Source: a virus
Lineage: Duplodnaviria; Heunggongvirae; Uroviricota; Caudoviricetes
Virus record (IMG/VR): IMGVR_UViG_2541047932_000008
Length of the DNA stretch: 14,110 bases
Reading direction: 5' to 3' (one strand)
Shown here: piece after piece, positions 2,205 through 14,110 of the stretch
How positions within the stretch are numbered: position 1 is the stretch's first letter
Layout: every line of letters begins with the position of its first letter
Program-made: the position numbers and the translations under genes
Notes under the pieces: model-generated
Told to the model about the DNA's origin: nothing
Database searches by the model: none
The model's input: only the letters and a program-made list of their open reading frames with translations

Positions 2205-2224
2205 GCCCGCTGGTATCAGCGGGC
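2205..2224. other. GC-rich stem-loop (8-bp stem GCCCGCTG/CAGCGGGC, loop GTAT) about 110 bp beyond the methyltransferase stop
   Basis: Perfect inverted repeat at 2205-2212 and 2217-2224. Followed on the plus strand by GCTTTAAG (short T-run) and on the minus strand by AATACATAC, so terminator function is uncertain on either strand. Confidence 0.3.
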
Positions 2225-2335
2225 GCTTTAAGAGATCGTATTCATGACTACCTGGGAAAAAGCTATTTTACTATTGTCAGTTTTTATTGCAGCCTTATCT
2301 GTCTACTTGCTTCACAGCCTGAACTGACCATATCT

Positions 2336-3412
2336 TTATCCATCCTTCCCGTCATCAATTGAGCATGTAAGGATGTGACTAATCTCCTTAACGGTCTGCG
2401 CAAAACGTTCTGCCTCCAGTTCAACACCAGTTGCACGACGCCCGAGCGCCATAGCTGCTTTTATGGTTGAGCCAGAACCCATGAAAAAATCCGCCACCAG
2501 GTCACCCGGACGACTGCTCGCGCAGATTATCTGCCGCAGCATTTCTGCCGGTTTTTCGCACGGATGTTTCCCTGGATAGTACTGCACCGGTTTATGCGTC
2601 CACACATCGGTGTACGGCACCTGCACCGTCACACCGAAATACCGCCGCAAATTTTTATATTCACTCAGCAGTTCCATATACTGCCGGTTCAGCTCACTGT
2701 ATGTGCTGACCAGTTGGTAATGGGACTTTTCCAGTTCTCCCCGCTGATGTTTCTCTTCTGCCACCCGGGCAAACAGCGACTGTAATTTCAGATAATCGCT
2801 TTCGTTCGGTAGCTGCCACTGACTGGCACTGAACCAGTGCGACACCATGTTTTTCTTTCCTGTGGCATCTGCAATCTGTTTTGCCGTTATCCCAAGAGCA
2901 GCACGCGCATCACGAAAGTAAGAAATCAGCGGGGCCATCACATGCTGTTTCAGTGCCCTGCCCTTCGCCTCATCGCCATCATCTTTCGGACGATACGGCC
3001 CCTGATAATGTTCCGCGAACAGAATGCGTTCTGTGGCCGGAAAATACGCCCGCAGGCTTTCCTTGTTGCACCCGTTCCAGCGTCCGGACGGCTTCGCCCA
3101 GATAATATGGTTCAGCACACTGAAGCGTTCACGCATCATGATTTCGATATCAGATGCCAGGCGATGACCACAGAACAGGTAAAGACTTCCGGCAGGTTTC
3201 AGCACCCGCCAGAACTGCGCCAGACACTGGTCCAGCCACTTCAGGTAATCATCGTCGCCCTTCCACTGGTTATCCCAGCCCTCAGGCTTCACTTTAAAGT
3301 ACGGCGGGTCCGTGACTATCAGGTCAACAGAATTTTCGGGTAACGACCGGATAAATTCCAGGCAATCAGCGTTGATTAACTTACAACTGGATATTTTTAC
3401 AGTATTAAGCAT
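2336..3412 (-). CDS. Orphan DNA N6-adenine methyltransferase, beta-class (motif IV before motif I)
   Basis: 358-aa ORF. DLIVTDPPY (catalytic DPPY motif) near the N-terminus and DLVADFFMGSGSTIKAAMALGRRATGVE (FxGxG AdoMet-binding motif) near the C-terminus. No adjacent restriction endonuclease ORF. Confidence 0.88.
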   Translation of the reverse strand: MLNTVKISSCKLINADCLEFIRSLPENSVDLIVTDPPYFKVKPEGWDNQWKGDDDYLKWLDQCLAQFWRVLKPAGSLYLFCGHRLASDIEIMMRERFSVLNHIIWAKPSGRWNGCNKESLRAYFPATERILFAEHYQGPYRPKDDGDEAKGRALKQHVMAPLISYFRDARAALGITAKQIADATGKKNMVSHWFSASQWQLPNESDYLKLQSLFARVAEEKHQRGELEKSHYQLVSTYSELNRQYMELLSEYKNLRRYFGVTVQVPYTDVWTHKPVQYYPGKHPCEKPAEMLRQIICASSRPGDLVADFFMGSGSTIKAAMALGRRATGVELEAERFAQTVKEISHILTCSIDDGKDG

Positions 3413-3547
3413 GGATCATTAAGCCTGTCTCTGATAGGCTCATTCTGCTTTTGCGCAAAGCAGTGGGCCTGAGGTTTGCTTGTGAACCCAACGCATGAGC
3501 AGATGGCTGGTGGGTGCCCCTAACACCCACCAGCCGCCCATTTACCA

Positions 3548-3576
3548 CAAATAAAAAAGCCTTCACTGCGGAAGGC
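3548..3576 (-). terminator. Rho-independent terminator after the small ORF
   Basis: Minus strand reads GCCTTC-CGCAGT-GAAGGC (plus 3559-3576) followed by TTTTTTATTT. The TGA stop of the small ORF lies in the loop. Confidence 0.7.
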
Positions 3577-3760
3577 GTCTGTAACAACCGAACTGATAGT
3601 CTGCCAGACCCGCCATAACCAGCTGAGTCAGTATTAACTGGCAGCGTTCGCGTGAAAGGTAAGTATTCTGCGCTATCTCCCCGACTGTCGCCGGTTCGGT
3701 AACGCTTAATTCATTAAACACCACTCTGGCGGTTTCTGTCATATCCTGCTGTTTTAGCAT
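3563..3760 (-). CDS. Small hypothetical protein (65 aa) with helix-turn-helix-like segment
   Basis: ATG at 3760 preceded by AAGGGAAAAAGA. Product MLKQQDMTETARVVFNELSVTEPATVGEIAQNTYLSRERCQLILTQLVMAGLADYQFGCYRRLPQ. The ORF track's 106-aa version starts upstream with no ribosome-binding site. Confidence 0.5.
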   Translation of the reverse strand: MLKQQDMTETARVVFNELSVTEPATVGEIAQNTYLSRERCQLILTQLVMAGLADYQFGCYRRLPQ

Positions 3761-3883
3761 GTCTTTTTCCCTTTTCCGGTTAACGTGACACACCAATAAC
3801 TCTTGTCGAAAAAGCCAGCAAGCTGAAAGAACGGTATTAATAACCACCAGCGAATTTATTGCGCTACTGTATATTGCGGACAC

Positions 3884-3906
3884 AAAAAAACCACCTTCCG
3901 GTGGCT
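3884..3906 (-). terminator. tR'-like intrinsic terminator about 200 nt downstream of the Q-like gene
   Basis: Minus strand reads AGCCACC-GGAA-GGTGGTT followed by a T7 run (plus 3884-3890 is A7). Unidirectional. Confidence 0.55.
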
Positions 3907-4030
3907 TCCTTGTGCGAAAAAAACTTGCGTTTCGCCTCGCGATACAGCTTTGCGAAGCTTATACGGATTGAAGCAGTTTATTGATCAGTTTGCAACATTT
4001 TTCTCTGTAACAAAAGCCATGCGCATGGGG

Positions 4031-4066
4031 GCATATAACATAAATTCAGATACCCCCAACCATTGA
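4031..4066 (-). promoter_or_regulatory. Candidate late promoter (pR'-like) with possible Q-utilisation region
   Basis: Minus strand reads TTGATCAATGGTTGGGGGTATCTGAATTTATGTTATATGC, containing an extended -10-like TGtTATATg with TTGGGG/TTGATC as possible -35. Lies 35-70 nt downstream of the Q stop and upstream of the tR'-like terminator. Sequence reading only. Confidence 0.3.
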
Positions 4067-4099
4067 TCAATTCGGCGTCTGCACGTAACCAACGACCAA

Positions 4100-4537
4100 T
4101 CAGGATGATCTGCATTTAACCTTTCGGCCATTTTCAGTTTGCTCATTCCCCCGTCCTTCGTACCTTTGCCGGAGAACATTGATTAGCCCGGGATATTCCC
4201 CAAGCACCTCACTGATAACGCGATCAATAATCAACGCCTCTGTGTCTGTACAATGTGACAACCAGCTCTTCTGCTTTCCTCTTGTCATATCCCGAAAAAA
4301 TGCCTCAAGTTCCGGTTTTTCCAGCCCGGATTTCTTCATTCTGCGTAAAACCTCATTAACTGCTGTTTTCGTCAGCTTTTTCGAAACCAGTAACCGGTTA
4401 AACATATTTCCGGATTTACCCCCACCGATATACGACCACCGCCCCCACATCCGTAATTTCCCCTGGATCCAGACTGCTTCCAGCGTGTTCAGGCGTAAAT
4501 GTTCGCCGCTTTTGCCTGTAATTTCCGGATATATCAT
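4100..4537 (-). CDS. Putative late antiterminator Q-like protein (about 145 aa)
   Basis: ATG at 4537 (the ORF track's 4549 start is GTG). Sits immediately after rusA and before the promoter/terminator module and cargo genes, the canonical Q position. The family assignment rests on position and size only. Confidence 0.55.
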   Translation of the reverse strand: MIYPEITGKSGEHLRLNTLEAVWIQGKLRMWGRWSYIGGGKSGNMFNRLLVSKKLTKTAVNEVLRRMKKSGLEKPELEAFFRDMTRGKQKSWLSHCTDTEALIIDRVISEVLGEYPGLINVLRQRYEGRGNEQTENGRKVKCRSS

Positions 4538-4545
4538 ATTTACGC

Positions 4546-4905
4546 TCACTCACTCTCAATTTTGTAAATCTTCACACCCAGCCGTCCACCAGATACTGGC
4601 TGACCACGTACAATATTGATTTCATCAAACTGCTCGTCATCAATGAGCACTCCCGCATGCGTCAGCGCATCCAGCGGTGCTTTCAGAATGTTGTCCAGGT
4701 CGCGACGACGCTTATCCGGTGGCTCTGCAATCACCTTTATCGCCAGCCTTCCGGACAGGCTTAATTTCAGCCGCTGCTGGCGAACAATAAGCGCCACAGC
4801 CCGGCGATAACGCTCACCGGCTTTTGATACAAAATATGTGCTGCCACGACGTCGCCAGTAGGTGTTCACCGTCGGCGGGTAAGGCAAAACAAACTCTATG
4901 AGCAT
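4546..4905 (-). CDS. rusA: Holliday junction resolvase RusA
   Basis: 119 aa with the RusA catalytic block PPDKRRRDLDNILKAPLDALTHAGVLIDDEQ. RBS AAGAGGTGA before ATG 4905. Stop is 8 nt upstream of the Q-like start. Confidence 0.9.
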   Translation of the reverse strand: MLIEFVLPYPPTVNTYWRRRGSTYFVSKAGERYRRAVALIVRQQRLKLSLSGRLAIKVIAEPPDKRRRDLDNILKAPLDALTHAGVLIDDEQFDEINIVRGQPVSGGRLGVKIYKIESE

Positions 4906-4917
4906 CAGTCACCTCTT

Positions 4918-5967
4918 TTACCCGAGCACGCCAGTCGCAAAGGCGTGATCAAGAAAACGAAAAATTAAATCAACCTGGGAACCATGCTTTTCTTCGAACG
5001 CCAGCGGATCCGCATGAAGCTCGTTGTGATGCTCCCGACACAGCGGTAGCGTGAAAATATCGTGGGATTTTGTTCCCATTCCACCCTGACCATGACCAAT
5101 CAGATGATGAGGATCGTCCGCTGGCTTACCACAACACGCACACGGCTGTGTCTTTACCCAGCGTGTGTATTTCTCATTTACCCAGCGGCGACGTTTAGGT
5201 CGTTTCATGAAGGATTCCGGAGACTCCGGATCAACGGCAATGCTGACCACCGTCTTTTCCTGTGGTGGGTTCTGTTGCTGGTGGGTGTGAGGCGGTAGCG
5301 CAATATTTTTTGTGCGCTGCTTCAGTATGCTGGTGGCGGTCTGTTCTCCCGGTATGATGTCGCTTTCACGGTATACGGAGCGGATTTTTTCCGCCGGTAA
5401 TCCCAGAGAACGACGCGCTACTGCCTCAGGTAGTGCATCCACCACCTGATTGCAGGCCGCCCACCAGGATAATTCGGCCAGCGATAACTCCCTCTCCTGC
5501 GTGCCGCTTATTGCGTGACGGATGACGTCAATCATCCAGGCAACCAGATTCTGCTGAGCAAGTTGATCGAGTGATTCTGATGTCTGGTCGCGCAGCTGGT
5601 TGTCACAGTGCCAGCACAACACCATCGCGCCGGTACCGTAACGGTGAATGACTGTTTCGCTGTGATGATAATCGCCGTGTGGCCACTGGCAGGATTTCAC
5701 GTGACGTAATAACCAGTCAGACAGTGCGCCAGCGCCGCCAGCAGCACGAATCACACGCTCATCGCTGAAAAATGGCAGTAATGATTTATCCTCCGCCAGC
5801 GGCTGGCGAACGGCAGGGACGACTCCGGACGGCAGACCGCGCATGCTTTTCGGTTCAGACTCCACCAGCACCCTGTCGCCATGAAATACCCGCATGGATT
5901 CACGGCTTGGCTTAACGATAACCACCCCGAGTTCCGGTACCAGAACAGGTCGAAGTAATACCCGCAC
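4918..5967 (-). CDS. YdfU-like / DUF968-type prophage protein with two Cys/His clusters
   Basis: 349 aa, GTG start at 5967 preceded by TGGAGGTAAC. Contains CQWPHGDYHH...CWHCDNQ and C-terminal CACCGKPADDPHHLIGHG...CREHHNELH (HNH/zinc-binding-like). Position between small nin-like genes and rusA-Q mirrors ydfU in the Qin prophage. Confidence 0.75.
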   Translation of the reverse strand: MRVLLRPVLVPELGVVIVKPSRESMRVFHGDRVLVESEPKSMRGLPSGVVPAVRQPLAEDKSLLPFFSDERVIRAAGGAGALSDWLLRHVKSCQWPHGDYHHSETVIHRYGTGAMVLCWHCDNQLRDQTSESLDQLAQQNLVAWMIDVIRHAISGTQERELSLAELSWWAACNQVVDALPEAVARRSLGLPAEKIRSVYRESDIIPGEQTATSILKQRTKNIALPPHTHQQQNPPQEKTVVSIAVDPESPESFMKRPKRRRWVNEKYTRWVKTQPCACCGKPADDPHHLIGHGQGGMGTKSHDIFTLPLCREHHNELHADPLAFEEKHGSQVDLIFRFLDHAFATGVLG

Positions 5968-5968
5968 G

Positions 5969-6247
5969 TTACCTCCAGATGCGCTGGCAATAACTGACTG
6001 GTGTACGTGGCTGATGATTTGATACAGGTAATGTCACCGAAACAAACCACGTCCTGCCGTCAGGGTTGAGTTGCTTTATTATTGTGTATCCGCGACGACC
6101 GTATAACTCTTCAAGTTCCCCGAGTTCATGCGTCGTACAGTCCGGATAGTAGAAAGGGTGTTTTTCAGATACGGAAAATCGCCGTCCGTGCCTGCTGGCA
6201 GGGTCGACTGAATTATTGGGATTATGACGTTTGGTATAATGCACCAC
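5969..6247 (-). CDS. Hypothetical protein (92 aa, GTG start)
   Basis: ORF-track frame. GTG at 6247 preceded by ACGAGGG. Its TAA stop sits inside the RBS of the next gene. No recognisable motif. Confidence 0.4.
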   Translation of the reverse strand: MVHYTKRHNPNNSVDPASRHGRRFSVSEKHPFYYPDCTTHELGELEELYGRRGYTIIKQLNPDGRTWFVSVTLPVSNHQPRTPVSYCQRIWR

Positions 6248-6307
6248 TACAACCCTCGTAATGGTGCGACAGGAGCCAGTTGTTCAGGCTGGCTTCACCA
6301 GTATAAT

Positions 6308-6475
6308 TTAGTCTTCTTTAATACAGAAGTGGCTGACAGAATCCATGTGAGATTCTTTAGTGATCAGAATGGCGTCGGGTGGTAACGGCATTACAATAAA
6401 CTCTCCATTTGCAAGGGTTATCACCTCATAACTACCCGGTACAGAAAGCGCAGCAATTAATTCCTTATCATTCAT
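6308..6475 (-). CDS. Hypothetical small protein (55 aa), absent from the ORF track
   Basis: Translated by hand: ATG at 6475 gives MNDKELIAALSVPGSYEVITLANGEFIVMPLPPDAILITKESHMDSVSHFCIKED with TAA at 6310-6308. AGGG lies 8 nt upstream of the ATG. Confidence 0.4.
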   Translation of the reverse strand: MNDKELIAALSVPGSYEVITLANGEFIVMPLPPDAILITKESHMDSVSHFCIKED

Positions 6476-6592
6476 AACAAAACCCTATGAACTTTTAACA
6501 TTTCCCCTTAAGGGGTCCATCCCTCTTCTCCCTGCGCGCTACTTAAGTATTTTTGATTCTATTCCGGCACCTTCAAAAAGCTCAAACGTCTT

Positions 6593-6627
6593 GAAAATAA
6601 ACAACAAAAAACCCGCCGAAGCGGGTT
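6593..6627 (-). terminator. Rho-independent terminator ending the hok transcript
   Basis: Minus strand reads AACCCGC-TTCG-GCGGGTT followed by TTTTTTGTTGTTTATTTT. Unidirectional: the plus strand has an A-run before the stem. Confidence 0.7.
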
Positions 6628-6695
6628 AAGTGCGGGTGCGTTGAGGATGCCTGACACATCAGAGGTGGCGAGGGATTTCTCCCCCGCCAGGTCTC

Positions 6696-6851
6696 TTACT
6701 CCTCAGGTTCGTAAGCTGTGAAGACAGCGACCTCCGTCTGGCCGGTTCGGATTCGTACCTCGCAGAGGTCTTTCCTCGTTACCAGTGCCGTCACAATGAC
6801 GGTTAAACAGATGACGATCAGGGCGATTAGCATCGCCTTTTGCTGCTTCAT
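6696..6851 (-). CDS. hokD: Hok/Gef-family type I toxin (HokD/RelF-like, 51 aa)
   Basis: MKQQKAMLIALIVICLTVIVTALVTRKDLCEVRIRTGQTEVAVFTAYEPEE, which matches HokD as I recall it. SD AAGGAG 7 nt before ATG 6851. The ORF track's 70-aa version (from 6908) is an in-frame upstream extension. Confidence 0.85.
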   Translation of the reverse strand: MKQQKAMLIALIVICLTVIVTALVTRKDLCEVRIRTGQTEVAVFTAYEPEE

Positions 6852-7026
6852 AGCCTGCTTCTCCTTGCCTTTCGGCACGTAAGAGGCTAACCTACGTGTG
6901 TAGAGCATAGATATGGCCTCAGATTAATGTTAAGCGTCTTGCCGGACGCGTAATGTTAACTGGGGCTTTTCTCTATCTGCCGTTGGTGTTCATGCCCGAG
7001 GCAGATAGCCTCAAGCACCCGCAGCA

Positions 7027-7054
7027 ATTCTACTTAACTCTCCTTTTCCCGCAA
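7027..7054 (-). promoter_or_regulatory. Candidate promoter of the hok mRNA
   Basis: Minus strand: TTGCGG (7054-7049), 16-nt spacer, TAGAAT (7032-7027). The predicted start near 7020 gives a leader of about 170 nt, as in hok mRNAs. Confidence 0.4.
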
Positions 7055-7141
7055 ACCGTTTTTATCTCCAGCGACAAATCGAATACACAACCAGCACCAC
7101 CGCCATTACTGTTCCTGCATTTGCGAATGCTTCAGGCCAGG

Positions 7142-7537
7142 TCATTGATTCACCTTCTGCTCAATATTTTTAAGGTCATTTTCCGCATACAGTATTGCAG
7201 TTCTTGCTGCCCGCAACCGTGCTTTGGTGTTCTTTTCTTCACGCTCGAGGCTGGCAACAGATTCTCGGAGCTGATCGCGTCTGTTATGAAGCTGTCTAAT
7301 CTCTCTCACCACAGCCTCACCATCGTTCGCACACCGCAGAACATACTGAAAAGGGTCCACAACACATCCGCACTGCAAGCACAGGATAACGCGATCCTGT
7401 TCATGAACCTCAATGGCCCGATGCTTACAGCTCTGTTGTGTGTAGTTTTTTCTGCCAGTTACTGTAATGTTCAGCAGCTTCTCTTCATCGCGCTTTGGCT
7501 GCACCCGTGTGATGATATTATCGCCTTCATTTTCCAT
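7142..7537 (-). CDS. Hypothetical protein (131 aa) with Cys cluster and coiled-coil C-terminus
   Basis: Start chosen at ATG 7537: AGGAGGTGA lies 5 nt upstream and the ATG shares one base with the TGA of the upstream gene (TGATG). The ORF track's 7612 start lacks an RBS. Contains CKH...CLQCGC. Confidence 0.7.
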   Translation of the reverse strand: MENEGDNIITRVQPKRDEEKLLNITVTGRKNYTQQSCKHRAIEVHEQDRVILCLQCGCVVDPFQYVLRCANDGEAVVREIRQLHNRRDQLRESVASLEREEKNTKARLRAARTAILYAENDLKNIEQKVNQ

Positions 7538-8127
7538 CAGTTCACCTCCTGCGGCGGTTCTGGTAGCGGCATCCAGTGTGACGGTTTCCACGACGCACCA
7601 GGAATTATCCACCCATCATTAGCGTCAGGATGCCCCGGGATGTAAGTCGCCCACTTCATTCGCCAGTCACCTTTCCTGTCAAACTCCACGGCAACAAGAA
7701 CGGCTGTTTTGGTATCCGGCATTCGCTCACTACAGCTTATCCAACCATCCGGAGTTACCGGAGAGTTGCCAGACAGCGCATTCTGCAACCGTTCCAGCTT
7801 AACGTATTCCTGAACCCTGTTTCCGTCGCACGCCTGAAGCCATTGCTCAGCCTTTTGCGCATCTGTGTGAAAGGCACAAGTGCGACCGTCATCAAATTGC
7901 ATTTCGTAGAGGTTAGCAATCTGTTCAAACTGCGTGTGTGGAAACTTGTGAGTTTGGCTTACAGGTTCGGCTTCCAGCGATGCCAGTGCAATTTTAAATG
8001 CGGTAAGTATGTTGTTAACCTCACCTATTTCGAATGCTATTTCACTACATACAAACGATTTATCGTCTATTATCGACTCAATTCCGGGAATCGTGTTCTG
8101 TAGCCATTCTTTGGTTAATTCAGCCAT
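7537..8127 (-). CDS. DUF551 domain protein
   Basis: 196 aa. C-terminal DGWISCSERMPD...SHWMPLPEPPQ is the DUF551 hallmark seen in lambdoid nin regions. Confidence 0.8.
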   Translation of the reverse strand: MAELTKEWLQNTIPGIESIIDDKSFVCSEIAFEIGEVNNILTAFKIALASLEAEPVSQTHKFPHTQFEQIANLYEMQFDDGRTCAFHTDAQKAEQWLQACDGNRVQEYVKLERLQNALSGNSPVTPDGWISCSERMPDTKTAVLVAVEFDRKGDWRMKWATYIPGHPDANDGWIIPGASWKPSHWMPLPEPPQEVN

Positions 8128-8253
8128 TCTTCACTACCGCCCTTTCTGGCGGCCTCCTGATGTTCTGAGGGTGCAGGGATCTCTCCGGTTAAGGATTTAA
8201 TAAAAATCATTTCTGATTTAAATTTTCAGTGTTTAGTTGTTGGTTTATAGCCT

Positions 8254-8565
8254 TTATGCTTCGGCCTTATTTCTCAGCCATACACAAACAGGACCATCTT
8301 CGGTGTCATGTATCGAACCGATAAACCATCCCTCACCTTCTGGTCGCTCAGGTTCCCATGCTGAAATATCAGGGCCATCTGCGTCCAGATTAAAATCATC
8401 TTCATCCATACTACGGATACCCCACTGAAGATTATTTTTCTCCATCCAGGCGTTAAACTCTTCCGTTGAAATATATTCCCGACCATCACAGAATTTTTCA
8501 TATTCAGGATGCGTCCAGCAGCCATATTCATTACGTTCCACTGGCATTTCTTTAATTGCGCTCAT
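8254..8565 (-). CDS. Hypothetical acidic protein (103 aa)
   Basis: ORF-track frame. Start ATG overlaps the stop of the upstream 63-aa gene (ATGA). No motif recognised. Confidence 0.7.
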   Translation of the reverse strand: MSAIKEMPVERNEYGCWTHPEYEKFCDGREYISTEEFNAWMEKNNLQWGIRSMDEDDFNLDADGPDISAWEPERPEGEGWFIGSIHDTEDGPVCVWLRNKAEA

Positions 8566-8753
8566 TTACCACCTCCCTTATTTAATTTTCTACGACACTT
8601 TTTACAATCATCTGGACTTTCGAATGTATCCGGCTCACGCTCATTGCCAAAATACATCCACCCACCGCAAGTACTTGTTATTTCACCTTCAGCAAAATAA
8701 TGATGCTTTTTCGCCATAAGTGGCCTTGCCCAGCCCGGATTCGTTTTACTCAC
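8562..8753 (-). CDS. Hypothetical small Cys-containing protein (63 aa)
   Basis: ATGA overlap with both neighbours. Contains STCGGW...DDCKKCRRK, a possible zinc-ribbon. Confidence 0.6.
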   Translation of the reverse strand: MSKTNPGWARPLMAKKHHYFAEGEITSTCGGWMYFGNEREPDTFESPDDCKKCRRKLNKGGGK

Positions 8754-9394
8754 TTGTTGCCTCCTTTGCGAAGCTCTGCGACTAACTCGTCACATATGTG
8801 CGTCAAAGAGCAAAGTTTGATTGATGGGTGTTCGCGCATCATCTCAACCCCCTGCGCCCGCACTTCAGCCAGGAAAGCATCGGTGGCTGGCGTTTCCCGT
8901 GAAAGGTAAGACCAAACAATGTCGTCTGTTTCACTGGGTTCTTCATGAGAGCAATTTGGGCAGACAGCAATACAACCAGCATGATCTTCTATGAGCATCT
9001 TCAGCCACGAGTTCTCCTCCGCCAGCGTCACGCGACTGGCCTCCAGTTCTGCTACGCGCTGTTTTGCAGCATCCAGTTCAATCGACAATTTTTCCAACTG
9101 CTCTTTATGCTTTTTATATTCCTGATATGCGTGCCAAGACTGACCTTTGCGCACACTATCAGTAATATCAGTAATCTGTTCTGGTGTTAGCGTGGTCAGT
9201 GGCTGTGCTGGAAAAATCATCACTTTCCCGGCATCCCAATCAAAACCCGCCCGAACTGACTGAACCTCAACTGATGGTGTTGAACCGATGCGACCAGGAG
9301 AATGAACAACGATCGTTACATCCATATCGCGATGATGGCTGTGGTTGTTGGACAAAATGCGATTCACCAACTCAGAAAATTTGGAAAATTTCAT
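8750..9394 (-). CDS. Coiled-coil protein, tentatively Ead/Ea22-like
   Basis: 214 aa. RBS AAAGGAGAA 6 nt before ATG 9394. Central heptad-like segment KEQLEKLSIELDAAKQRVAELEASRVTLAEENSWLKML and a CPNCSHEE motif. Family name is tentative. Confidence 0.65.
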   Translation of the reverse strand: MKFSKFSELVNRILSNNHSHHRDMDVTIVVHSPGRIGSTPSVEVQSVRAGFDWDAGKVMIFPAQPLTTLTPEQITDITDSVRKGQSWHAYQEYKKHKEQLEKLSIELDAAKQRVAELEASRVTLAEENSWLKMLIEDHAGCIAVCPNCSHEEPSETDDIVWSYLSRETPATDAFLAEVRAQGVEMMREHPSIKLCSLTHICDELVAELRKGGNK

Positions 9395-9681
9395 GCTGAT
9401 TCTCCTTTCTCTGCTCTCTCCTGTCGGAACATCACTATCATCAGGTCACCTTTTGTCGCTATCCTGGCTGTTGTGCCAGGCTCAATGCGGCTAAGTTCAA
9501 ATGCGTCATAGAACGCCTCTAACGCTTTCTGGCGTCTCTCCTGTTTGCGCCGTTTTTTCCACTGTTTTAGAAAAATGGAACCAAGCCATCACCATGCACG
9601 GGACATGATGTAAAGCCAACCGAGAAGTGCCAGACCGGTATTTAGGGCCGTATCGATCGTTATCGTGGTGTCGATATTCAC
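9391..9681 (-). pseudogene. Small membrane-protein gene interrupted by an in-frame TGA (codon 31 of 96)
   Basis: One frame runs from GTG 9681-9679 (AGGAGG 7 nt upstream, overlapping the TAG of the upstream gene) to a TGA at 9393-9391 that overlaps the ATG of the next gene. It is broken only by TGA at 9591-9589 (...MSRAW*WLGSIFLKQWKKRRKQ...). Confidence 0.35.
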
Positions 9682-10073
9682 TACGCCACCTCCTGAAGTT
9701 TCCCCTGATAAAACGCCAGCACGCGCTGCATAACTTCACTATTCCGGCACTCGCAACAGATTATGTTCAGGCGTCTGTCGTAGCGGCGTATTTCTCCGTC
9801 TGGTAACTTTCGAATCAATGTCTGGTCAGTTGTTTTCTCCGGTGTCTTACGCCATACGCGATACACCTGTTCTGATGTAAAAACACCGTATTTACCGGGC
9901 ATGTATAAATCGCCACAAGCCAGTACATCCACAAGGCAACGTCTGACTGAATGCCAGCCTGCTCCCGTCGCTCTCTCCAGTTGTGATATCGTCATGCGTT
10001 CATTTTTGCGTACCAGCCCGATAATTCGGGCCTTCAGTTCTTCACGCTGTTCGTGTGTAAAAGGTTTCGCCAT
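9681..10073 (-). CDS. Hypothetical protein (130 aa), possible winged-helix DNA-binding protein
   Basis: ATG 10073 with GGAGG 6 nt upstream. Begins MAKPFTHEQREELKARIIGLVRKNERMTISQLERATG. Not assigned to a family. Confidence 0.7.
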   Translation of the reverse strand: MAKPFTHEQREELKARIIGLVRKNERMTISQLERATGAGWHSVRRCLVDVLACGDLYMPGKYGVFTSEQVYRVWRKTPEKTTDQTLIRKLPDGEIRRYDRRLNIICCECRNSEVMQRVLAFYQGKLQEVA

Positions 10074-10088
10074 AAGCGCCTCCGGCTA

Positions 10089-10814
10089 TCACTTTTCCGA
10101 CACAATACGACCGGATGAATCGACAATCTGCCGAACAATATCCCAGTGCTTGTTCAACTCCCGCAGCGCGGCGCAGACTCGCTCCCACTTCTGAACCTGA
10201 CCTTTTGCTCGGCGCAGCTCGCGGTTAGCCACATGCAGCGATGGTAAAATCAGACCATCCGGATGCTTTCTGGTGAACGACGGCTGTGACTGCACTGTGA
10301 CCGCCACACTTTCCGTTTTTATTTCTTCCTGTGTTTCCGCTTCCCCGACTGGTAACGCAACACCTGCTGGCTGAGGAAAGGCTTTACCATCCGTTTCCGC
10401 TATGGATGCGGCTTTCGGCTCTGCCGGTAAATCAGCGCCCGGTATGCAGTACCGAAATTTACCGCCCTGATTCACGCGAATCAGACGCCCTTTGCTGATT
10501 GCCATGGCCAGTGATGAATTCGCCCGGCGGGAGGTAATCCCGAACATCAGTGCCAGCTCATCCGCCGTTTGTGGGCCATGATGTTCAATCGCCTCAGTCA
10601 GCATTTGCGCTGTCACTTTCGGTACCGGTGACACTGGTTCACTTTCACCAGCCTGAATCAGCCACCACATCGAACCCTTGTTATCCGCTTCACCACGGCG
10701 CTTCAGTTTCCACAGTTCGTTGACAGCATCTTCGCGGCTGATTCCAAGGCGCGATGCCACTACCTGTGAAGAGGCTTTTTTCAGTGCTTTCAGTGCGTCA
10801 AATACAGTTTCCAT
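10089..10814 (-). CDS. Hypothetical protein (241 aa)
   Basis: Start placed at ATG 10814 ([11 protein letters not shown]...) with TGGAGGAC upstream. The ORF track's 10832 start is TTG. Confidence 0.7.
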
Positions 10815-10835
10815 TAAAACGTCCTCCAACAAAAA

Positions 10836-11582
10836 TTACTTCACAACCCTCTGATTGCTGACATTTGGACGCCAGCTATCCCAGTTAAACGTCACCCACC
10901 GACCACCGTTCATGGTCATGCGGTCCATAATCCTCTCACCAAGAAGCGTGCTCATTGCGGCATGATTCAGGTTTGTTAACATCCCGACACTGCACAGTGA
11001 TGCTGTCCGGCGATCAATTATCTGGTGCAATACCACCTGCTCGTTTTTCGTCTCCCGCTGAACGCCTATTTCATCCAGGACCAGCAAATCAACACTGCAA
11101 AGCTCCTGTAAAAATTTTTCCCCGGATTTGCCGTTGTCGTAGCTGTCATGCAACACGCTCATGACATCAGACACGGTGACGATAATCACGCTGCGCCCCT
11201 TCGCCATCAGCCGGTTACCCATCGCCGCTGCAAGGTGATTTTTCCCGGTGCCGGTTTTACCGCTGAACACAAAATTCGTGCACCCGGTCATCAGTTCGTC
11301 AGCTATGGATTTGGCCTGGCTCAGCGCGTATTTTTGCCCGTCGTTCTGCACCTGATAATTCGCAAACGAGCATTTGCTGTGCAGAGGCTGGATGCCCGAA
11401 CGATTCAGGATTTTTTCCACCCGCAACTGGTGATTCTGGCGGTTAATCTCCTCGCTGCGTTTTCGTCCTTCAGCAAGTTGCCATTCCCGCCACTCCTCCA
11501 CCGTCCGGTACGGTGGAACCGACGCCTGTGGTGCAAGTCTGCGAATACGTTCAAGAACCCCGGCTGCCGCAATGTTTTTCAT
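10836..11582 (-). CDS. DnaC-like replicative helicase loader (AAA+ ATPase)
   Basis: 248 aa. Walker A FSGKTGTGKNHLAAA and Walker B DLLVLDEIG; C-terminal VTFNWDSWR resembles E. coli DnaC. Confidence 0.9.
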   Translation of the reverse strand: MKNIAAAGVLERIRRLAPQASVPPYRTVEEWREWQLAEGRKRSEEINRQNHQLRVEKILNRSGIQPLHSKCSFANYQVQNDGQKYALSQAKSIADELMTGCTNFVFSGKTGTGKNHLAAAMGNRLMAKGRSVIIVTVSDVMSVLHDSYDNGKSGEKFLQELCSVDLLVLDEIGVQRETKNEQVVLHQIIDRRTASLCSVGMLTNLNHAAMSTLLGERIMDRMTMNGGRWVTFNWDSWRPNVSNQRVVK

Positions 11583-11588
11583 GCCACA

Positions 11589-12659
11589 TCACCCCCTGAA
11601 TCCCGGCGGAATTTCGGTATCCGGTTCAGAAATATGATTCACACAACGCTGGTTGTTCGTGCCGCTTACCGGGAGCAACCAGGAGTTTTCAAAATTCCGG
11701 TCCGGCCCAAAAAACGTCGTCGCTCGCTGAACAAATTCCGTTCCCGCTTTCCCGGTCGCCGCCAGGTATCTCGCGTAACGCCTCACACCATCCAGCATGG
11801 TCTCTGGTGGCACCCCCTCGCGCAATCTGGCCTTCCAGGCACTGAAAGCGGATTTCTTCGGGTTTGCCCCGGCACGCAACGGGTATTCCCGCCAGACCTG
11901 TTCGAACACATCCGGATAATCCACTCGTCCCACAGACTGCCCGGTGCTTTCCGGGACTACCCGATCGGCTTCCCGCTGAATGGCGGAATCGGCTTCAGGC
12001 TGCTGCAGTTGGTGTGATTGCTCCGGCCTTGCGGTCATCACCTGCTGCACAGCGCCCGAATCGGCTTTCAGCGCATACGCTGAATCGGCTTCCGGTGTCG
12101 TGCCTGCTGGCTGACCAGGATTGACGGTCTGAACATCCCCTGCCTGGTTCGTGGCGTTTTTTACGCCATGGACCATAGTGTTTTGATCTTCTTGATCTGT
12201 ATCTTTATCTGTATCTTTATCTGTCGTGACTCGTCGTGACATGTGCGTGACATTTCGTGACGCGCCGTGACAATCGCCATTTTGTTCCCGCTTTCTTTCC
12301 CTCTCTCGCTGCGCCCTCTTGCGCTCTGCAGGAGATTTTGCGGTTTGCGAAATATTGCCGTTGTCCTCTTTCAGCACCTGGCGTTTTTCCCATCCAGTGA
12401 TTAAATCACCATCAAGTACCCGCCCCTGCATCGTCTGCAAAATTGAATCAATTACCTCTTCTGTCACGTCGAGCGCACTTGCCAAATCTTCTGTCGTGAC
12501 ATCAATGTGACCTCGCGTGACATTTCGTGACGCGCTCACCAGGAGGTGGATATACACTGCCATCACTGTTGCAATTGGCTGCCCTGACACCCTGGCAATT
12601 GTTCGCCACTTAGGGTCATTTGGCATGTCATGCCATAATCTGAGCCAGGCGTTAGCCAT
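11589..12659 (-). CDS. Replication initiator / replisome-organiser protein (O-like; DnaT-like C-terminal region)
   Basis: Start placed at ATG 12659 (MANAWLRLWHDMPNDPKW...) with AAGAGGTGA upstream; the ORF track's 12665 start is GTG. Sits directly upstream of the DnaC-like gene and contains two iteron clusters in its coding sequence. Confidence 0.8.
   Translation of the reverse strand: MANAWLRLWHDMPNDPKWRTIARVSGQPIATVMAVYIHLLVSASRNVTRGHIDVTTEDLASALDVTEEVIDSILQTMQGRVLDGDLITGWEKRQVLKEDNGNISQTAKSPAERKRAQRERERKREQNGDCHGASRNVTHMSRRVTTDKDTDKDTDQEDQNTMVHGVKNATNQAGDVQTVNPGQPAGTTPEADSAYALKADSGAVQQVMTARPEQSHQLQQPEADSAIQREADRVVPESTGQSVGRVDYPDVFEQVWREYPLRAGANPKKSAFSAWKARLREGVPPETMLDGVRRYARYLAATGKAGTEFVQRATTFFGPDRNFENSWLLPVSGTNNQRCVNHISEPDTEIPPGFRG
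12221..12271. repeat. Iteron cluster 1: five direct CGTGAC repeats at 10-11 bp spacing, next to an AT-rich tandem repeat (candidate origin)
   Basis: CGTGAC at 12225, 12235, 12246, 12256 and 12266. Flanked at 12192-12220 by (TCTGTATCTTTA) x2.4. Shares the 21-mer GCGTGACATTTCGTGACGCGC with cluster 2. Confidence 0.5.
12491..12531. repeat. Iteron cluster 2: four CGTGAC/TGTGAC repeats at 10-11 bp spacing
   Basis: Repeats at 12495, 12506, 12516 and 12526. Includes the same 21-mer as cluster 1. An inverted GTCACG copy lies at 12463-12468. Confidence 0.5.
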
Positions 12660-12730
12660 ACTCACCTCTTCTGATACCGAATCATTTTACTCACGAGTTG
12701 CCGGAAGCGATTCGATATGGCTATTGTCAG

Positions 12731-13156
12731 TCAATGTACTGCCACAGCATTTCCTGCCGGGCCACCACGGTTCATCTGATTGAAACCGGCGATTGCCACT
12801 GCGACAAAATCATCAGCGTCTCTCACCAGTCGCTCCCGCGTCTCCACCAGCTCCCGAAAATAAGCTGAACTGTGGCTGCGCATTCTGGCCACCAGCAAAG
12901 GTGGCATTGCCTTTTCGATCGCTGGTAACAACGCCTGAATTTTTTCAACTGCATCAGGGGTGTCTTTCTCTACCCAGCGGAAAATTTTCTGTGTATTGCG
13001 AGCCAGGGCTTCCGGATGGCTGTCGTCATACAGTTCAGGAAACGTCATACCCAACTCAAAATAAGCCTGGGTTATTCCAGCTGCTGGAACTTTTTCGCCA
13101 TCAGGACGCGCCCAGGCATTCATCGCCATGCGGATGTGTTCATGCTTGATTTTCAT
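12731..13156 (-). CDS. YdaT-like protein (CII-position gene of Rac-type immunity regions)
   Basis: 141 aa, MKIKHEHIRMAMNAWARPDG.... GGAG lies 8 nt before ATG 13156. The start overlaps the 3' end of the Cro-like gene by 17 nt. Confidence 0.7.
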   Translation of the reverse strand: MKIKHEHIRMAMNAWARPDGEKVPAAGITQAYFELGMTFPELYDDSHPEALARNTQKIFRWVEKDTPDAVEKIQALLPAIEKAMPPLLVARMRSHSSAYFRELVETRERLVRDADDFVAVAIAGFNQMNRGGPAGNAVAVH

Positions 13157-13415
13157 GAATCAACTCCGGTGTATTTGGTGTGTTAGCCTTATCTCCAGCA
13201 GGCAACCCGTCAGTTGGATTCGGGTATAAATCTGGTCGCAATTCATGAGGAGTAACCCCAGTTGCAATATAAATTTGACGAACCCGTTCTCCCGTCGGCA
13301 CTCGACCATTGTATTCATTTGCCCATTTGTGTATTTGAGATGGCCAAGCCCCTATTGCACGCCCTAGCGGACGAATACCACCAGCAATCTTTATTGCTTT
13401 GTCCAATGCTGTCAT
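13140..13415 (-). CDS. Cro-like / YdaS-like small HTH regulator
   Basis: 91 aa, MTALDKAIKIAGGIRPLGRAIGAWPSQIHKWANE.... GGAGG lies 5 nt before ATG 13415. Divergent from the repressor gene. Confidence 0.75.
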   Translation of the reverse strand: MTALDKAIKIAGGIRPLGRAIGAWPSQIHKWANEYNGRVPTGERVRQIYIATGVTPHELRPDLYPNPTDGLPAGDKANTPNTPELIHENQA

Positions 13416-13443
13416 ACAACCTCCAGTTCAACTAACCACAACG

Positions 13444-13472
13444 ATTGTTCACTTAAAACGAACACAAGTCAA
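13444..13472 (-). promoter_or_regulatory. PR-like early promoter with embedded operator (GTTC-N9-GAAC)
   Basis: Minus strand: TTGACT-tgtGTTCgttttaagtG-AACAAT. The operator dyad (plus 13447-13463) fills the spacer and overlaps the -10. Confidence 0.45.
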
Positions 13473-13484
13473 CACCTCGAGGAA

Positions 13485-13512
13485 TTGTTAGTGTTCACTG
13501 AACGGTTATAAT
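13485..13512 (+). promoter_or_regulatory. Repressor-gene promoter (PRM-like), predicted leaderless transcript
   Basis: TTGTTA (13485-13490), 16-nt spacer containing the palindrome GTTCACTGAAC (13493-13503), then consensus TATAAT (13507-13512). The ATG at 13519 lies 7 nt after the -10 and has no SD. Confidence 0.5.
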
Positions 13513-13518
13513 TGCCAA

Positions 13519-13908
13519 ATGGACATGAGAAAAAAGCAATACGACACCCCGCTAGCAGAAAGGTTAGATACGATCTCTCAACAGCATCATTTAAGTGGTT
13601 CAGATTTAGCGCGTATCGCTGGTGTAGGTCGTTCATCAGTCAACGCATGGAAAAAAAGAGGAACAATCAGTAAAGATTCCGCAGCCAAAATTGCAGAAGC
13701 CACAAACGTTTCCCTTTCTTGGCTACTGACAGGGAAAGAAGAGACAAATAGAGAGGCGCTTGATGATGACGAGAAGGCCCTGCTTGATGTTTACAGAAAC
13801 CTGCCACCTGTAGAACGTAGAAATATGCTGGCAGCTTTTCAAATGCGACTCCAAAAACTGACCGAATTTTACTCAGAATACGTCGACCCAATAACACGAC
13901 AAAAATAA
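13519..13908 (+). CDS. Prophage repressor, XRE-family HTH, no peptidase domain
   Basis: 129 aa. HTH segment LSGSDLARIAGVGRSSVNAWKKRGTISKDSAAKIAEATNVSLSWLLTG. No Ser/Lys peptidase motifs, and too short for a LexA-like C-terminal domain. Confidence 0.85.
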   Translation: MDMRKKQYDTPLAERLDTISQQHHLSGSDLARIAGVGRSSVNAWKKRGTISKDSAAKIAEATNVSLSWLLTGKEETNREALDDDEKALLDVYRNLPPVERRNMLAAFQMRLQKLTEFYSEYVDPITRQK

Positions 13909-13929
13909 TTCTTTATTTTACAGAATCAT

Positions 13930-13958
13930 ACCGCCGCAAGGCGGTTTTTTTTTTTTTT
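13930..13958 (+). terminator. Rho-independent terminator after the repressor gene
   Basis: ACCGCC-GCAA-GGCGGT followed by 14 consecutive T. Confidence 0.8.
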
Positions 13959-13972
13959 GCGTATTCATCATG

Positions 13973-14001
13973 TTGACTTTCGTTCACCTAGAGAGAACAA
14001 T
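13973..14001 (+). promoter_or_regulatory. PL-like promoter with embedded operator, mirror of the PR-like module
   Basis: TTGACT-ttcGTTCacctagagaG-AACAAT: the same 29-bp layout (TTGACT, 3 nt, GTTC-N9-GAAC overlapping AACAAT) as the minus-strand promoter at 13444-13472. Confidence 0.4.
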
Positions 14002-14110
14002 GTATTCCATCAAAGCACAACGGTGCGACAGGTCTTAGTTCCGCTACCCCGGCGTTAAGGGGAAACAGAGGATTTCTCAGTGGGCGAAGTCAAACATCAG
14101 AATGGAAGGC

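Follow-up and report, generated by a model that had tools for sequence, protein, structure and literature searches.

The locus considered here raises two connected questions, namely how a short prophage repressor without a self-cleavage domain is expressed, and by which route its repression might be relieved. It lies near one end of the window, i.e., the whole stretch of Caudoviricetes DNA that was analyzed (14,110 nt), and consists of one open reading frame:

13519..13908, + strand: repressor gene, an open frame of 129 codons plus stop (MDMRKKQYDTPLAERL...DPITRQK)

This ORF is very probably the lysogeny-maintenance (CI-equivalent) gene of a Rac/Qin-like lambdoid E. coli prophage, and it would encode a DicA-like short repressor that is expressed as a leaderless mRNA from a PRM-like promoter. 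The assignment is built on observed domain content, promoter geometry, operator repeats, synteny and family-wide conservation, which are discussed below together with the competing explanations.

In the protein, a linker connects a five-helix CI/Xre-type helix-turn-helix (HTH) domain (residues ~11-71) to a helical hairpin at the C-terminus (helices 83-94 and 97-121). Its HTH is matched in Pfam by PF07022 (Phage_CI_repr; residues 28-75, E 1.7e-12, 47.9 bits, cut-off 22 bits), a family named after the 186-type CI, and, as the second match, by HTH_3. The Pfam HMM of Peptidase_S24 (PF00717) gave no match to the repressor even at E ≤ 0.1, and the same HMM recovered the positive controls with 52-59 bits (L016, L017 and L032, i.e., two Pantoea relatives and the alternative cassette of strain F8704-2). 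The Pantoea proteins have the same HTH as the repressor and possess an S24 domain as well. Because about 55 residues follow the HTH, an S24 domain does not fit in the repressor, and the interdomain linker (residues 72-82, GKEETNREALD) is devoid of an Ala-Gly or Cys-Gly cleavage site; the sole AG dipeptide of the protein (A34-G35) is found inside the HTH, in helix 27-34 and the turn that follows. The AlphaFold model (AF2) is all-alpha, with eight helices, no strand and a pLDDT of 81. The search for a peptidase S24 domain suggested in the original prediction thus detected no peptidase-like domain, and the claim of a 129-aa HTH repressor without LexA-like self-cleavage domain is upheld by this search, by the positive controls and by the all-helical model.

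With respect to its relatives, hhalign aligned the repressor with DicA of the Qin prophage (E. coli K-12) over the full length (residues 12-123, 97% probability). The best NCBIfam match is the DicA subfamily NF007257, which spans the same residues and model positions 6-127 of 135, with 37.2 bits, a value that does not reach the curated cut-off of 101 bits; at the level of sequence, the repressor is a distant relative of the DicA subfamily, below its membership cut-off. The two proteins have in common the HTH and the hairpin of the type 'ELLxxF/YxxLPxxE(Q/R)...', and their synteny is the same, with a small Cro-like gene in divergent orientation and DUF1391 downstream, whereas their identity is 21%, their operators are different, and the Cro-like partner is DicC in Qin and of the YdaS type here. 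Accordingly, the repressor displays the DicA-like architecture, i.e., about 125-140 aa in which an Xre/CI HTH precedes a C-terminal helical hairpin of the type 'ELLxxFxxLPxxEQ', and the DicA-like location, i.e., a lambdoid immunity region with the Cro-like gene divergent and the PL-side genes downstream. The motif is alignable also in the Sp10 repressor and in PaaR2, and hairpin residues 96-114 are the most conserved part of the repressor, with a pairwise column identity of 0.85 vs 0.65 for the HTH. The best PDB sequence match is the CI of phage 186, while the best full-length structural match is SinR of B. subtilis, which combines an Xre HTH with a C-terminal helical hook (Foldseek E 3.9e-4), although the TM-scores are low (0.41/0.50) and the biology and host of SinR are unrelated. 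A protein 100% identical to the repressor (P0001) occurs in 125 contigs. Identity with two repressors of the Sakai strain was ruled out: the Sp10 repressor ECs_1941 is 22% identical over the full length, and the Sp9 repressor ECs_1765 is DicA-like and a different protein. As neither of them is the present protein, the published mitomycin data discussed later concern the class and not this gene.

The surroundings of the gene are those of a lambdoid immunity region, of which the following elements are relevant:

12731..13156, - strand: YdaT, CII-like activator, 84% identical to the characterized YdaT of CP-933P
13140..13415, - strand: Cro-like gene of the YdaS family (91 aa), with a GGAGG Shine-Dalgarno (SD) sequence, divergent from the repressor gene; YdaS_toxin 39 bits, PHROG 35
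13146..13163, no strand: YdaT (CII-like) box TTGATTTTCATGAATCAA at the cro-stop/ydaT-start junction, with zero mismatches to TTGATT-N6-AATCAA
13162..14036, no strand: exchangeable immunity cassette of ~870 bp (cro, OR, repressor, terminator, OL/PL), delimited by homology breakpoints

The gene order, with the repressor, ydaS, ydaT, O, a DnaC-like P, DUF1627 and DUF977 on one side and DUF1391 on the other, matches that of Rac and Qin, so that the original comparison with Rac-type switches proves apt. In L001 and L002, two of the homologous loci, DUF1391, dicB, kil, an exonuclease and an integrase are located on the PL side. RacR, the repressor of Rac, resides in the same prophage architecture (ydaS, ydaT, DnaC-like loader, DUF977, DUF1391) and, like the present protein, has no S24 domain; unlike it, RacR is 158 aa long with a different C-terminal part, and only the HTH helices align (residues 24-60). 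The limits of the cassette are given by the prophage F8704-2, whose homology ends at 13161, by CP-933P, ending at ~13167, and by the PPompW phages, resuming at ~14037. F8704-2 has the same backbone and carries a Cro/CI plus LexA-family (S24) cassette instead, and the cassette flanks are common to prophages of other immunity types. Positions 13100-14000 of the window were covered by at least 80% in 82 of 5,426 complete E. coli genomes, O157:H7 lineages included, and since the cassette is found on different backbones in these genomes, recent mobility is implied. Examples of carriers are E. coli EC12 (repressor gene at 4938592-4938981 of NZ_CP070229.1) and O157:H7 FRIK944. Rfam and tRNA scans of the immunity region found nothing.

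The recognition motif of YdaT, TTGATT-N6-AATCAA, has been published (PMC9986795), and around the box the window has the same sequence as CP-933P in its PRE933P primer region. From this sequence, we infer that the box marks a PRE-like establishment promoter pointing toward the repressor gene; no clear hexamer was found beyond the box as a candidate -10 for such a promoter.

The promoters and operators around the repressor gene were assigned as follows:

13444..13472, - strand: PR-like promoter of the Cro-like gene, TTGACT-17-AACAAT
13446..13464, no strand: putative OR1-like operator, a perfect TGTTC-N9-GAACA within the spacer and -10 of the PR-like promoter
13485..13512, + strand: PRM-like sigma-70 promoter from the promoter scan, with -35 TTGTTA at 13485-13490, a 16-nt spacer and -10 TATAAT at 13507-13512
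13486..13504, no strand: weaker operator-like site, putatively autoregulatory, TGTTA-N9-GAACG (two mismatches) over the -35 and spacer of the PRM-like promoter
13973..14001, + strand: PL-like promoter, TTGACT-17-AACAAT, reading into the DUF1391/dicB/kil/exonuclease side
13981..13999, no strand: putative PL-like operator, CGTTC-N9-GAACA, in the spacer of the PL-like promoter

The PR- and PL-like promoters form a 31-nt inverted repeat of each other (I1). At up to one mismatch, TGTTC-N9-GAACA occurs in the 14 kb solely within these two promoters, the OR1-like site being the only one with zero mismatches in the window, and the PL operator is a perfect copy in the O157 variant. A GTCAAC motif is kept at the corresponding PR position in the homologous loci, and the OR1-like half-sites are kept in L001, L002 and L004, with a variable spacer; across the repressor family, the operators are not the same. 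The PRM-proximal site includes the palindrome GTTCAcTGAAC (13493-13503), and its GTGTTCAC half-site, not the palindrome, is conserved in L004. This 11-bp palindrome was considered as the basic operator and rejected, being conserved neither at PR/PL nor in Lelliottia, and the 19-bp TGTTC-N9-GAACA fits better; no convincing candidate was found for an OR2-like middle site. The arrangement resembles that of lambda in the divergent PR/PRM, in the second operator set at PL past the repressor gene and in the CII-type establishment input, with two or three definable sites in the window vs 3+3 in lambda.

Judging from these repeats, the repressor, presumed to bind DNA and to oligomerize, would occupy the 19-bp operators in the PR-like (13446-13464) and PL-like (13981-13999) promoters, and by doing so it would silence both the Cro-like/YdaT/replication operon and the DUF1391/dicB/kil/exonuclease operon, while autoregulation may be possible through the weaker site (13486-13504), which overlaps the -35 of its own promoter.

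Then, the question is how this repression could be lifted. Lambda CI carries an S24 domain at its C-terminus and undergoes RecA-aided cleavage, whereas the window repressor is without S24, hence sequence and fold, as far as they can tell, exclude autocleavage stimulated by RecA, in agreement with what had been predicted and with what has been published for similar repressors. Indeed, the O157 prophages Sp4, Sp6, Sp9 and Sp10 have short repressors without a peptidase domain, and Sp6, Sp9 and Sp10 are not mitomycin-inducible (PMC2669165); PaaR2 likewise has no self-cleavage domain and its system does not respond to mitomycin C (PMC8630535). Since self-cleavage appears impossible, derepression would come from competition by the Cro-like protein or from a trans-acting antirepressor. 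In the first case, the Cro-like protein would compete with the repressor in a bistable, SOS-independent switch, as shown for PaaR2/YdaS, a system in which switching in stationary phase has also been seen; in the second, an antirepressor may bind the conserved hairpin.

A possible reading, though a doubtful one, is that the prophage is cryptic and has no induction route at all, the repressor being kept to silence dicB, kil and the ydaS/ydaT-like toxic genes, in the manner of RacR and DicA in K-12. Compared with a prophage of 99.8% identity, the window has a 1-nt insertion (around 4152) that splits its Q-like antiterminator, so the element may be cryptic and never induced, and in the copies of EC12 and F8704-2 the integrase carries a frameshift. 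Moreover, no LexA-controlled antirepressor gene or other inducer module was found in the 14-42 kb of prophage DNA scanned, and RacR is essential because it silences toxic early genes (PMC5700373). However, the frameshift of the Q-like gene could be a sequencing error, and the recent mobility implied by the 82 genomes speaks against an inert element. In any case, a cryptic state is compatible with, and not opposed to, the assignment of the ORF as a leaderless DicA-like repressor.

Induction by the SOS response through a LexA-controlled antirepressor that acts on the conserved hairpin, and that is encoded outside the window or by a co-resident prophage, is unlikely. Its appeal derives from other short, non-cleavable HTH repressors of about 130 aa, namely CI of 186 (with Tum) and GfoR/GtgR of the Gifsy prophages (with GfoA/GftA); the Gifsy repressors are inactivated by an antirepressor, and DicA and RacR have been named in the same group (PMC3121763). 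The fact that 186 CI is the best PDB sequence match, that the matched SinR structure is a complex with the antagonist SinI, and that the hairpin is better conserved than the HTH points in the same direction; by analogy, SinR/SinI could serve as a working model for small-protein antagonism of a hairpin-type repressor. The antirepressors that we take to be the models for such an inducer are Gifsy GfoA/GftA, 186 Tum and N15 AntC. In contrast to the 186 and Gifsy systems, which have a LexA-controlled dinI/antirepressor module, none was found around the window repressor. No perfect LexA box is present in the window, in 27 kb of the EC12 prophage (which has the same cassette) or in 42 kb of the backbone prophage, and one-mismatch sites are as frequent as chance predicts; the five in the window, all inside coding regions, were discarded as LexA boxes, 4.9 being expected. 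DinI, Ant, Bro-N, KilA-N and Rha domains were not found in the window or in its nin-like region, which is where the Gifsy prophages carry the module, and a Gifsy-style module 3' of the replication genes was rejected on these grounds. Likewise, neither Gifsy nor 186 was among the phage records retrieved by tblastn. Finally, the failure of Sp6, Sp9, Sp10 and the PaaR2 system to respond to mitomycin C (PMC2669165, PMC8630535) argues against an SOS route in this class.

As for the expression of the DicA-like repressor, two additional elements come into play:

13525..13527, + strand: second in-frame ATG (MRKKQ...), 12 nt from the -10 and without SD
13930..13958, + strand: intrinsic terminator from the terminator scan, an ACCGCC-GCAA-GGCGGT stem-loop followed by 13 T, 22 nt past the repressor stop

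With 10/12 consensus matches, the PRM-like promoter ranks first among the three promoter-like sites of 12600-14110; the number of such sites (three vs 1.9 expected) does not exceed that in shuffles, and it was left out of the evidence. The TATAAT hexamer is followed by TGCCAA and then by the ATG at 13519. The gap, earlier described as 7 nt, is 6 nt, with the A of the ATG as the 7th base past the hexamer, so the geometry behind that description holds. The distance from the -10 is canonical for a predicted transcription start at A13519, with which the start codon begins. No GGAG, GAGG or AGGA occurs in the 18 nt upstream of ATG13519 (AACGGTTATAATTGCCAA), which agrees with the claimed lack of a Shine-Dalgarno.

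The same geometry recurs throughout the family. A -10-like hexamer precedes the ATG by 6-7 nt in 12/12 nonredundant homologous loci (31-77% identity, eight genera), as compared with a background of 4% of all ATGs and 12% of ATGs in AT-rich context, a count that overstates independence because the loci are related by descent, and that includes L007, whose start codon was picked with the hexamer already known. Three further loci (L024/25, L026 and L028/29) have the hexamer at this distance as well, and in L026 an in-frame stop lies immediately 5' of the ATG, so that a longer ORF is impossible there. The common layout is TTGnnn-16/17-TA(T/C)A(A/C)T-6/7-ATG, and the 5' coding ends in the family are A-rich and weakly structured.

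Precedents exist for this type of switch. The lambda cI mRNA made from PRM is leaderless, with the -10 located six nt before the ATG. The leaderless concept for lambda cI has been cited also in the work on PaaR2 (PMC8630535), and dRNA-seq placed dicA and racR, each with a mapped leader of <10 nt, among only five leaderless mRNAs in E. coli K-12 (PMC4681348). The racR gene had been considered a leadered counterexample, its upstream AGGAG being read as an SD; this was dismissed, as the same dRNA-seq data report it as leaderless (PMC4681348). Taken together, the family-wide -10-N6/7-ATG geometry and the precedents PaaR2, dicA and racR support a leaderless mRNA for the repressor, as originally predicted.

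On this basis, the PRM-like promoter (TTGTTA-16-TATAAT) would start the mRNA at A13519 and transcription would end at the terminator at 13930-13958, which would make the repressor mRNA monocistronic and ~440 nt long. Its 5'-terminal AUG would be recognized by ribosomes, yielding a product that begins with MDMRKK. YdaT acting at the 13146-13163 box could supply a second, PRE-like repressor transcript during establishment; this one would have a leader, so that leaderless expression need not be the gene's only mode. Translation from ATG13525, with a 127-aa product (MRKKQ...) and a leader of 6 nt or longer that would not be strictly leaderless, is quite improbable: 127 aa is the PGAP annotation in O157:H7 and many other genomes (the start calls of PGAP being inconsistent and varying among genomes between 129 aa and 127 aa), the single ATG of the relatives at 60-67% identity lines up with the Met of ATG13525, and the perfect YdaT box 360 nt upstream of the repressor could drive a leadered transcript, but the -10 is 12 nt from this ATG and 6 nt from ATG13519 against a family-wide spacing of 6-7 nt, neither ATG is preceded by an SD, the extra ATGGAC between the two starts preserves the frame, and a transcript from 13519 would carry an in-frame 5'-terminal AUG, the signal for leaderless initiation (PMC8630535, discussion).

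The leaderless DicA-like repressor has an instructive parallel in PaaR2 of CP-933P/Sp12 (E. coli O157:H7), whose gene has GATAAT-6 nt-ATG upstream and was demonstrated to be leaderless by Jurenas et al. in 2021, by 5' RACE and N-terminal sequencing (PMC8630535). Both genes occupy the same position in the immunity region, divergent from ydaS-ydaT, with identical -10-6 nt-ATG geometry; both proteins, of about 125 aa, combine an HTH with a helical C-terminal region and lack a peptidase motif; in both systems, the -35/-10 elements and the operators are common to PR and PL, the YdaT proteins being 84% identical and the YdaT boxes identical. Nevertheless, the operators are TGTTC-N9-GAACA in the window and GTTTAGTAA-type repeats for PaaR2, and in the window a terminator is predicted to close off the repressor gene as a monocistronic unit, whereas the toxin-antitoxin pair paaA2-parE2 comes next after paaR2. 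BLASTP detected no similarity between the two repressors, and a profile comparison gave a weak alignment of the C-terminal hairpin alone (45% probability), hence PaaR2 was rejected as an orthologue and is to be regarded as an analogue or a very distant relative.

Leaderless expression and the missing self-cleavage domain are already documented for relatives, and the leaderless principle is established for lambda cI, PaaR2, DicA and RacR; the present repressor adds another case. A bolder and rather improbable extension is that, in the Enterobacterales clade of hairpin-type repressors, the AUG at +1 of the PRM-like promoter is obligate and selected, and that the nearly invariant hairpin docks an SOS-independent inducer. 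If so, an antirepressor or a growth-phase-linked host factor would dock on the segment LPPxERRNMLAAFQMRLQxL, the E. coli/Lelliottia branch would have kept the +1 AUG through a 6-nt in-frame N-terminal extension, and the repressor level, and with it the switching probability, would be determined by 70S ribosomes translating the leaderless mRNA.

The analysis provides a mechanism-level annotation for a repressor that databases call only 'helix-turn-helix domain-containing protein', and its comparison of loci is further evidence that short lambdoid repressors are, as a family, expressed from leaderless mRNAs. Prophages of the present immunity type are predicted to be unresponsive to DNA-damaging antibiotics via RecA cleavage, and this predicted unresponsiveness bears on the mobilization of prophage-borne virulence genes.

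The plus-strand reading frame at 13519-13908 encodes a 129-aa repressor that is matched by PF07022, the phage CI-repressor HTH family (E 1.7e-12), and by HTH_3. The original prediction that this protein has no LexA-like self-cleavage domain was confirmed by an HMM search, in which peptidase S24 gave no match even with a permissive threshold. This negative result is meaningful because the same HMM scored 52-59 bits on two Pantoea proteins with the same HTH and on the alternative repressor of an otherwise identical prophage. Since the repressor has no S24 domain, RecA-mediated self-cleavage is excluded as the induction route, judging from domain content and as had been claimed.

An AlphaFold model (16 homologues as input; pLDDT 81) is all-helical: residues 11-71 form an HTH domain of five helices, which a linker of low conservation joins to a helical hairpin (helices 83-94 and 97-121). 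Conservation within the protein peaks in segment 96-114 of the hairpin (0.85 vs 0.65 for the HTH), whose pattern LPPxERRNMLAAFQMRLQxL (window ~13804-13860) is nearly invariant among homologues with an overall identity of only 55-80%. A looser hairpin pattern, ELLxxFxxLPxxEQ, is common to the repressors PaaR2, DicA and that of the O157 Sakai prophage Sp10.

Features of the immunity region
13415-13140, minus strand: Cro-like gene of the YdaS family with a GGAGG Shine-Dalgarno (SD), divergent from the repressor gene
13146-13163: perfect match to the YdaT recognition motif, at the cro/ydaT junction
13472-13444, minus strand: PR-like promoter predicted from sequence, TTGACT-17-AACAAT
13486-13504: weaker TGTTC-N9-GAACA copy overlapping the PRM-like -35
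13507-13512, plus strand: predicted -10 TATAAT, followed by TGCCAA and ATG
13519-13908, plus strand: repressor gene, open frame of 129 codons
13930-13958: strong intrinsic terminator 3' of the repressor gene
13973-14001, plus strand: predicted PL-like promoter, with the hexamers of the PR-like one

The repressor's own, PRM-like promoter has a TTGTTA -35 located 16 nt upstream of the TATAAT hexamer, and the 18 nt preceding the ATG contain no SD-like tetramer. The description of a TATAAT 7 nt before an SD-less ATG was thus accurate, the A of the ATG being the seventh base after the hexamer, the canonical +1. Because the gene is followed by the intrinsic terminator, its transcript is monocistronic.

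The leaderless prediction was tested by comparing homologous loci, 18 found by scanning a single genome per species and six more by three protein look-ups. All 12 non-redundant hairpin-type loci, which encode short repressors with an HTH and a C-terminal hairpin but no S24 domain (31-77% identity; Lelliottia, Raoultella, Erwinia, Phlomobacter, Sodalis, Chimaeribacter, Serratia, Xenorhabdus), have a -10-like hexamer (TATAAT, TACAAT, TAAAAT, TATACT, TAAACT or TAATAT) 6 or 7 nt 5' of the ATG and lack an SD; in the same loci this spacing occurs at 4% of all ATGs and at 12% of those in AT-rich context. The shared ancestry of the loci means that binomial figures overstate their independence, and at one locus the position of the hexamer was already known when the start codon was assigned. 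The same arrangement is seen in three further types, one from Salmonella, one from Enterobacter and one metagenomic; the Enterobacter locus has an in-frame stop codon directly 5' of the ATG. The operators are quite unlike among the loci (e.g., TTAGCC-N3-GGCTTA), so the promoter/ATG spacing stays constant while its surroundings diverge. Unlike the hairpin-type relatives, both S24-bearing Pantoea relatives have a GGGAG SD before the ATG and no hexamer at this spacing; in these proteins (locus L016, 2483-3163; locus L017, 2447-3127) the HTH shared with the repressor (55-63% identical across ~50 residues) is joined to a true S24 domain. The first 18 coding nt are A-rich (39-72% A; remainder of the gene, 20-36%), and folding is weak over the first 40 nt, as expected for leaderless messages, though not specific to them. 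Taken together, the comparison supports the prediction of a leaderless transcript.

It also bears on the start codon, which PGAP annotation (129 or 127 aa) does not settle. The single ATG of relatives at 60-67% identity aligns with the second Met of the window's repressor and occupies the leaderless position, while in the E. coli, Salmonella, Klebsiella and Lelliottia branch this position is held by the first ATG (13519), the second lying 12 nt from the hexamer. Judged from the alignment, this branch has gained six in-frame nt (ATGGAC) and kept an AUG at the predicted +1, which favors the 129-aa product over that of 127 aa.

In function, PaaR2 of CP-933P is the nearest precedent, although BLASTP found no similarity between the two proteins and they align only weakly, in the hairpin. 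By 5' RACE, the paaR2 transcript begins with the A of the ATG; the protein starts with MQKKE by N-terminal sequencing, has no peptidase motif and is unreactive to mitomycin C (PMC8630535). DNA retrieved via the published primers gave GATAAT-6 nt-ATG, the geometry of the repressor gene. DicA is a distant full-length relative of the repressor family (profile comparison, 97% probability), but the repressor is far from the DicA subfamily cutoff (37 vs 101 bits). Differential RNA-seq of E. coli K-12 found only five leaderless mRNAs, three of which encode prophage regulators, dicA and racR included (PMC4681348). The repressors of Sakai Sp4, Sp6, Sp9 and Sp10 were reported to have no peptidase domain, and Sp6, Sp9 and Sp10 are not induced by mitomycin C (PMC2669165). 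The repressor genes of Sp10 (ECs_1941, L030 8353-8772; TATCAT-7) and Sp9 (ECs_1765, L031 7017-7424; TAGAAT-8) have a -10-like hexamer 7-8 nt 5' of an SD-less ATG, as does dicA at 9 nt (L022 1935-2342; TAGCAT-9), which suggests that such short prophage repressors are leaderless or nearly so as a rule.

The window belongs to a lambdoid E. coli prophage, and the proposed Rac-type comparison holds, as the gene order of the repressor region is that of Rac and Qin in K-12. Beyond the Cro-like gene, the minus strand carries a YdaT/CII-like gene, a replication initiator, a DnaC-like loader, DUF1627 and DUF977, and further on hok/sok, DUF968/HNH, RusA, the Q-like antiterminator and a DNA methyltransferase; in genomes with the same cassette, the plus-strand side carries DUF1391, dicB/kil, a RecE-like exonuclease, xis/int and the integration site. 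The PR-like and PL-like promoters, which face the Cro-like and the DUF1391-dicB-kil sides, are a 31-nt inverted repeat of one another, and each contains a 19-bp TGTTC-N9-GAACA palindrome; no other site in the 14-kb window comes within one mismatch of this pattern. In variants at 93-99% identity, as in Lelliottia, the half-sites are kept and the spacer bases vary. The window's YdaT is 84% identical to the characterized CP-933P YdaT; the published YdaT recognition motif is TTGATT-N6-AATCAA (PMC9986795). A GC-rich hairpin, CCCCGGCGTTAAGGGG, at about 14048-14063, 3' of the PL-like promoter and 5' of the DUF1391 GTG start (about 14081), could be a nut-like or attenuator element.

As to induction, the original prediction invoked an antirepressor or other mechanism, and self-cleavage is indeed excluded, but no antirepressor module of the Gifsy/186 type was found in the DNA searched. 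By analogy with PaaR2, which represses PR- and PL-like promoters with common hexamers and operators and forms a bistable switch with YdaS, an SOS-blind switch based on Cro competition is the most likely. A minority alternative is that a trans-acting antirepressor derepresses, as short Gifsy repressors, a group in which DicA and RacR were named as members, are inactivated by LexA-controlled antirepressors (Lemire et al., PMC3121763). The hairpin, more conserved than the HTH, and the best full-length fold match, SinR bound to SinI, make a protein antagonist possible, although an oligomerization surface would show the same conservation. Against it, perfect LexA boxes are absent from the window, from 27 kb of prophage DNA with the same cassette in E. 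coli strain EC12 and from 42 kb of the backbone prophage, and the nin-region ORFs yielded no DinI, Ant, KilA-N, Bro-N or Rha domain. A LexA-box-like sequence at 3387-3402, with one mismatch and inside the first codons of the methyltransferase gene, was judged to be due to chance.

Other features of the window
1416-1742, plus strand: iraM (anti-adapter protein), within the prophage
2336-3412, minus strand: phage DNA methyltransferase, 358 aa, downstream of the Q-like gene
3985-4549, minus strand: Q-like (DUF1133) antiterminator, as two overlapping ORFs (4549-4100 and 4179-3985)
6696-7020, minus strand: hok/sok type I toxin-antitoxin module (Hok-like ORF 6908-6696; sok RNA 7020-6846; Rfam RF01794, 111.7 bits)

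The prophage may also be cryptic: the EC12 and F8704-2 copies have a frameshifted integrase, and the window's Q-like gene has a 1-nt insertion, an extra G around 4152, relative to the single 183-aa gene of the 99.8%-identical F8704-2 prophage. This G is either a real frameshift or a sequencing error; if real, the prophage would be defective for late transcription. At the left end (window 1-2330), a SASA-family carbohydrate esterase gene runs off the window with only its 5' part inside, and no tRNA genes occur there, unlike in the equivalent region of Sp9 and Sp10.

Window 1-13161 is 99.8% identical to the prophage of E. coli O39:NM F8704-2, which at the corresponding place (L032 33139-34111) has a Cro/CI gene and a LexA-family (S24) gene whose 112-aa product has S24 as its sole domain, with no HTH. 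Homology to CP-933P ends at about 13167, and that to PPompW phages, which have other immunity types, restarts at about 14037, the segment 14040-14110 being 97% identical. The backbone/cassette junction (13146-13167) coincides exactly with the YdaT box and the cro stop codon. The ~870-bp cassette, found whole in 82 of 5,426 complete E. coli genomes, is by these comparisons a swappable immunity module, and F8704-2 and the window are a clean example of its exchange between cleavable and non-cleavable repressor types.

Overall, the observation made on the repressor is confirmed and its interpretation supported. A short non-cleavable repressor with PRM-like leaderless expression is already documented for the class and, by experiment, for analogous repressors. 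The present analysis adds that the -10/AUG spacing is conserved throughout the family, reasons for preferring the 129-aa start, a map of the operators and the cassette, and a search for a cis-encoded SOS module that found none.
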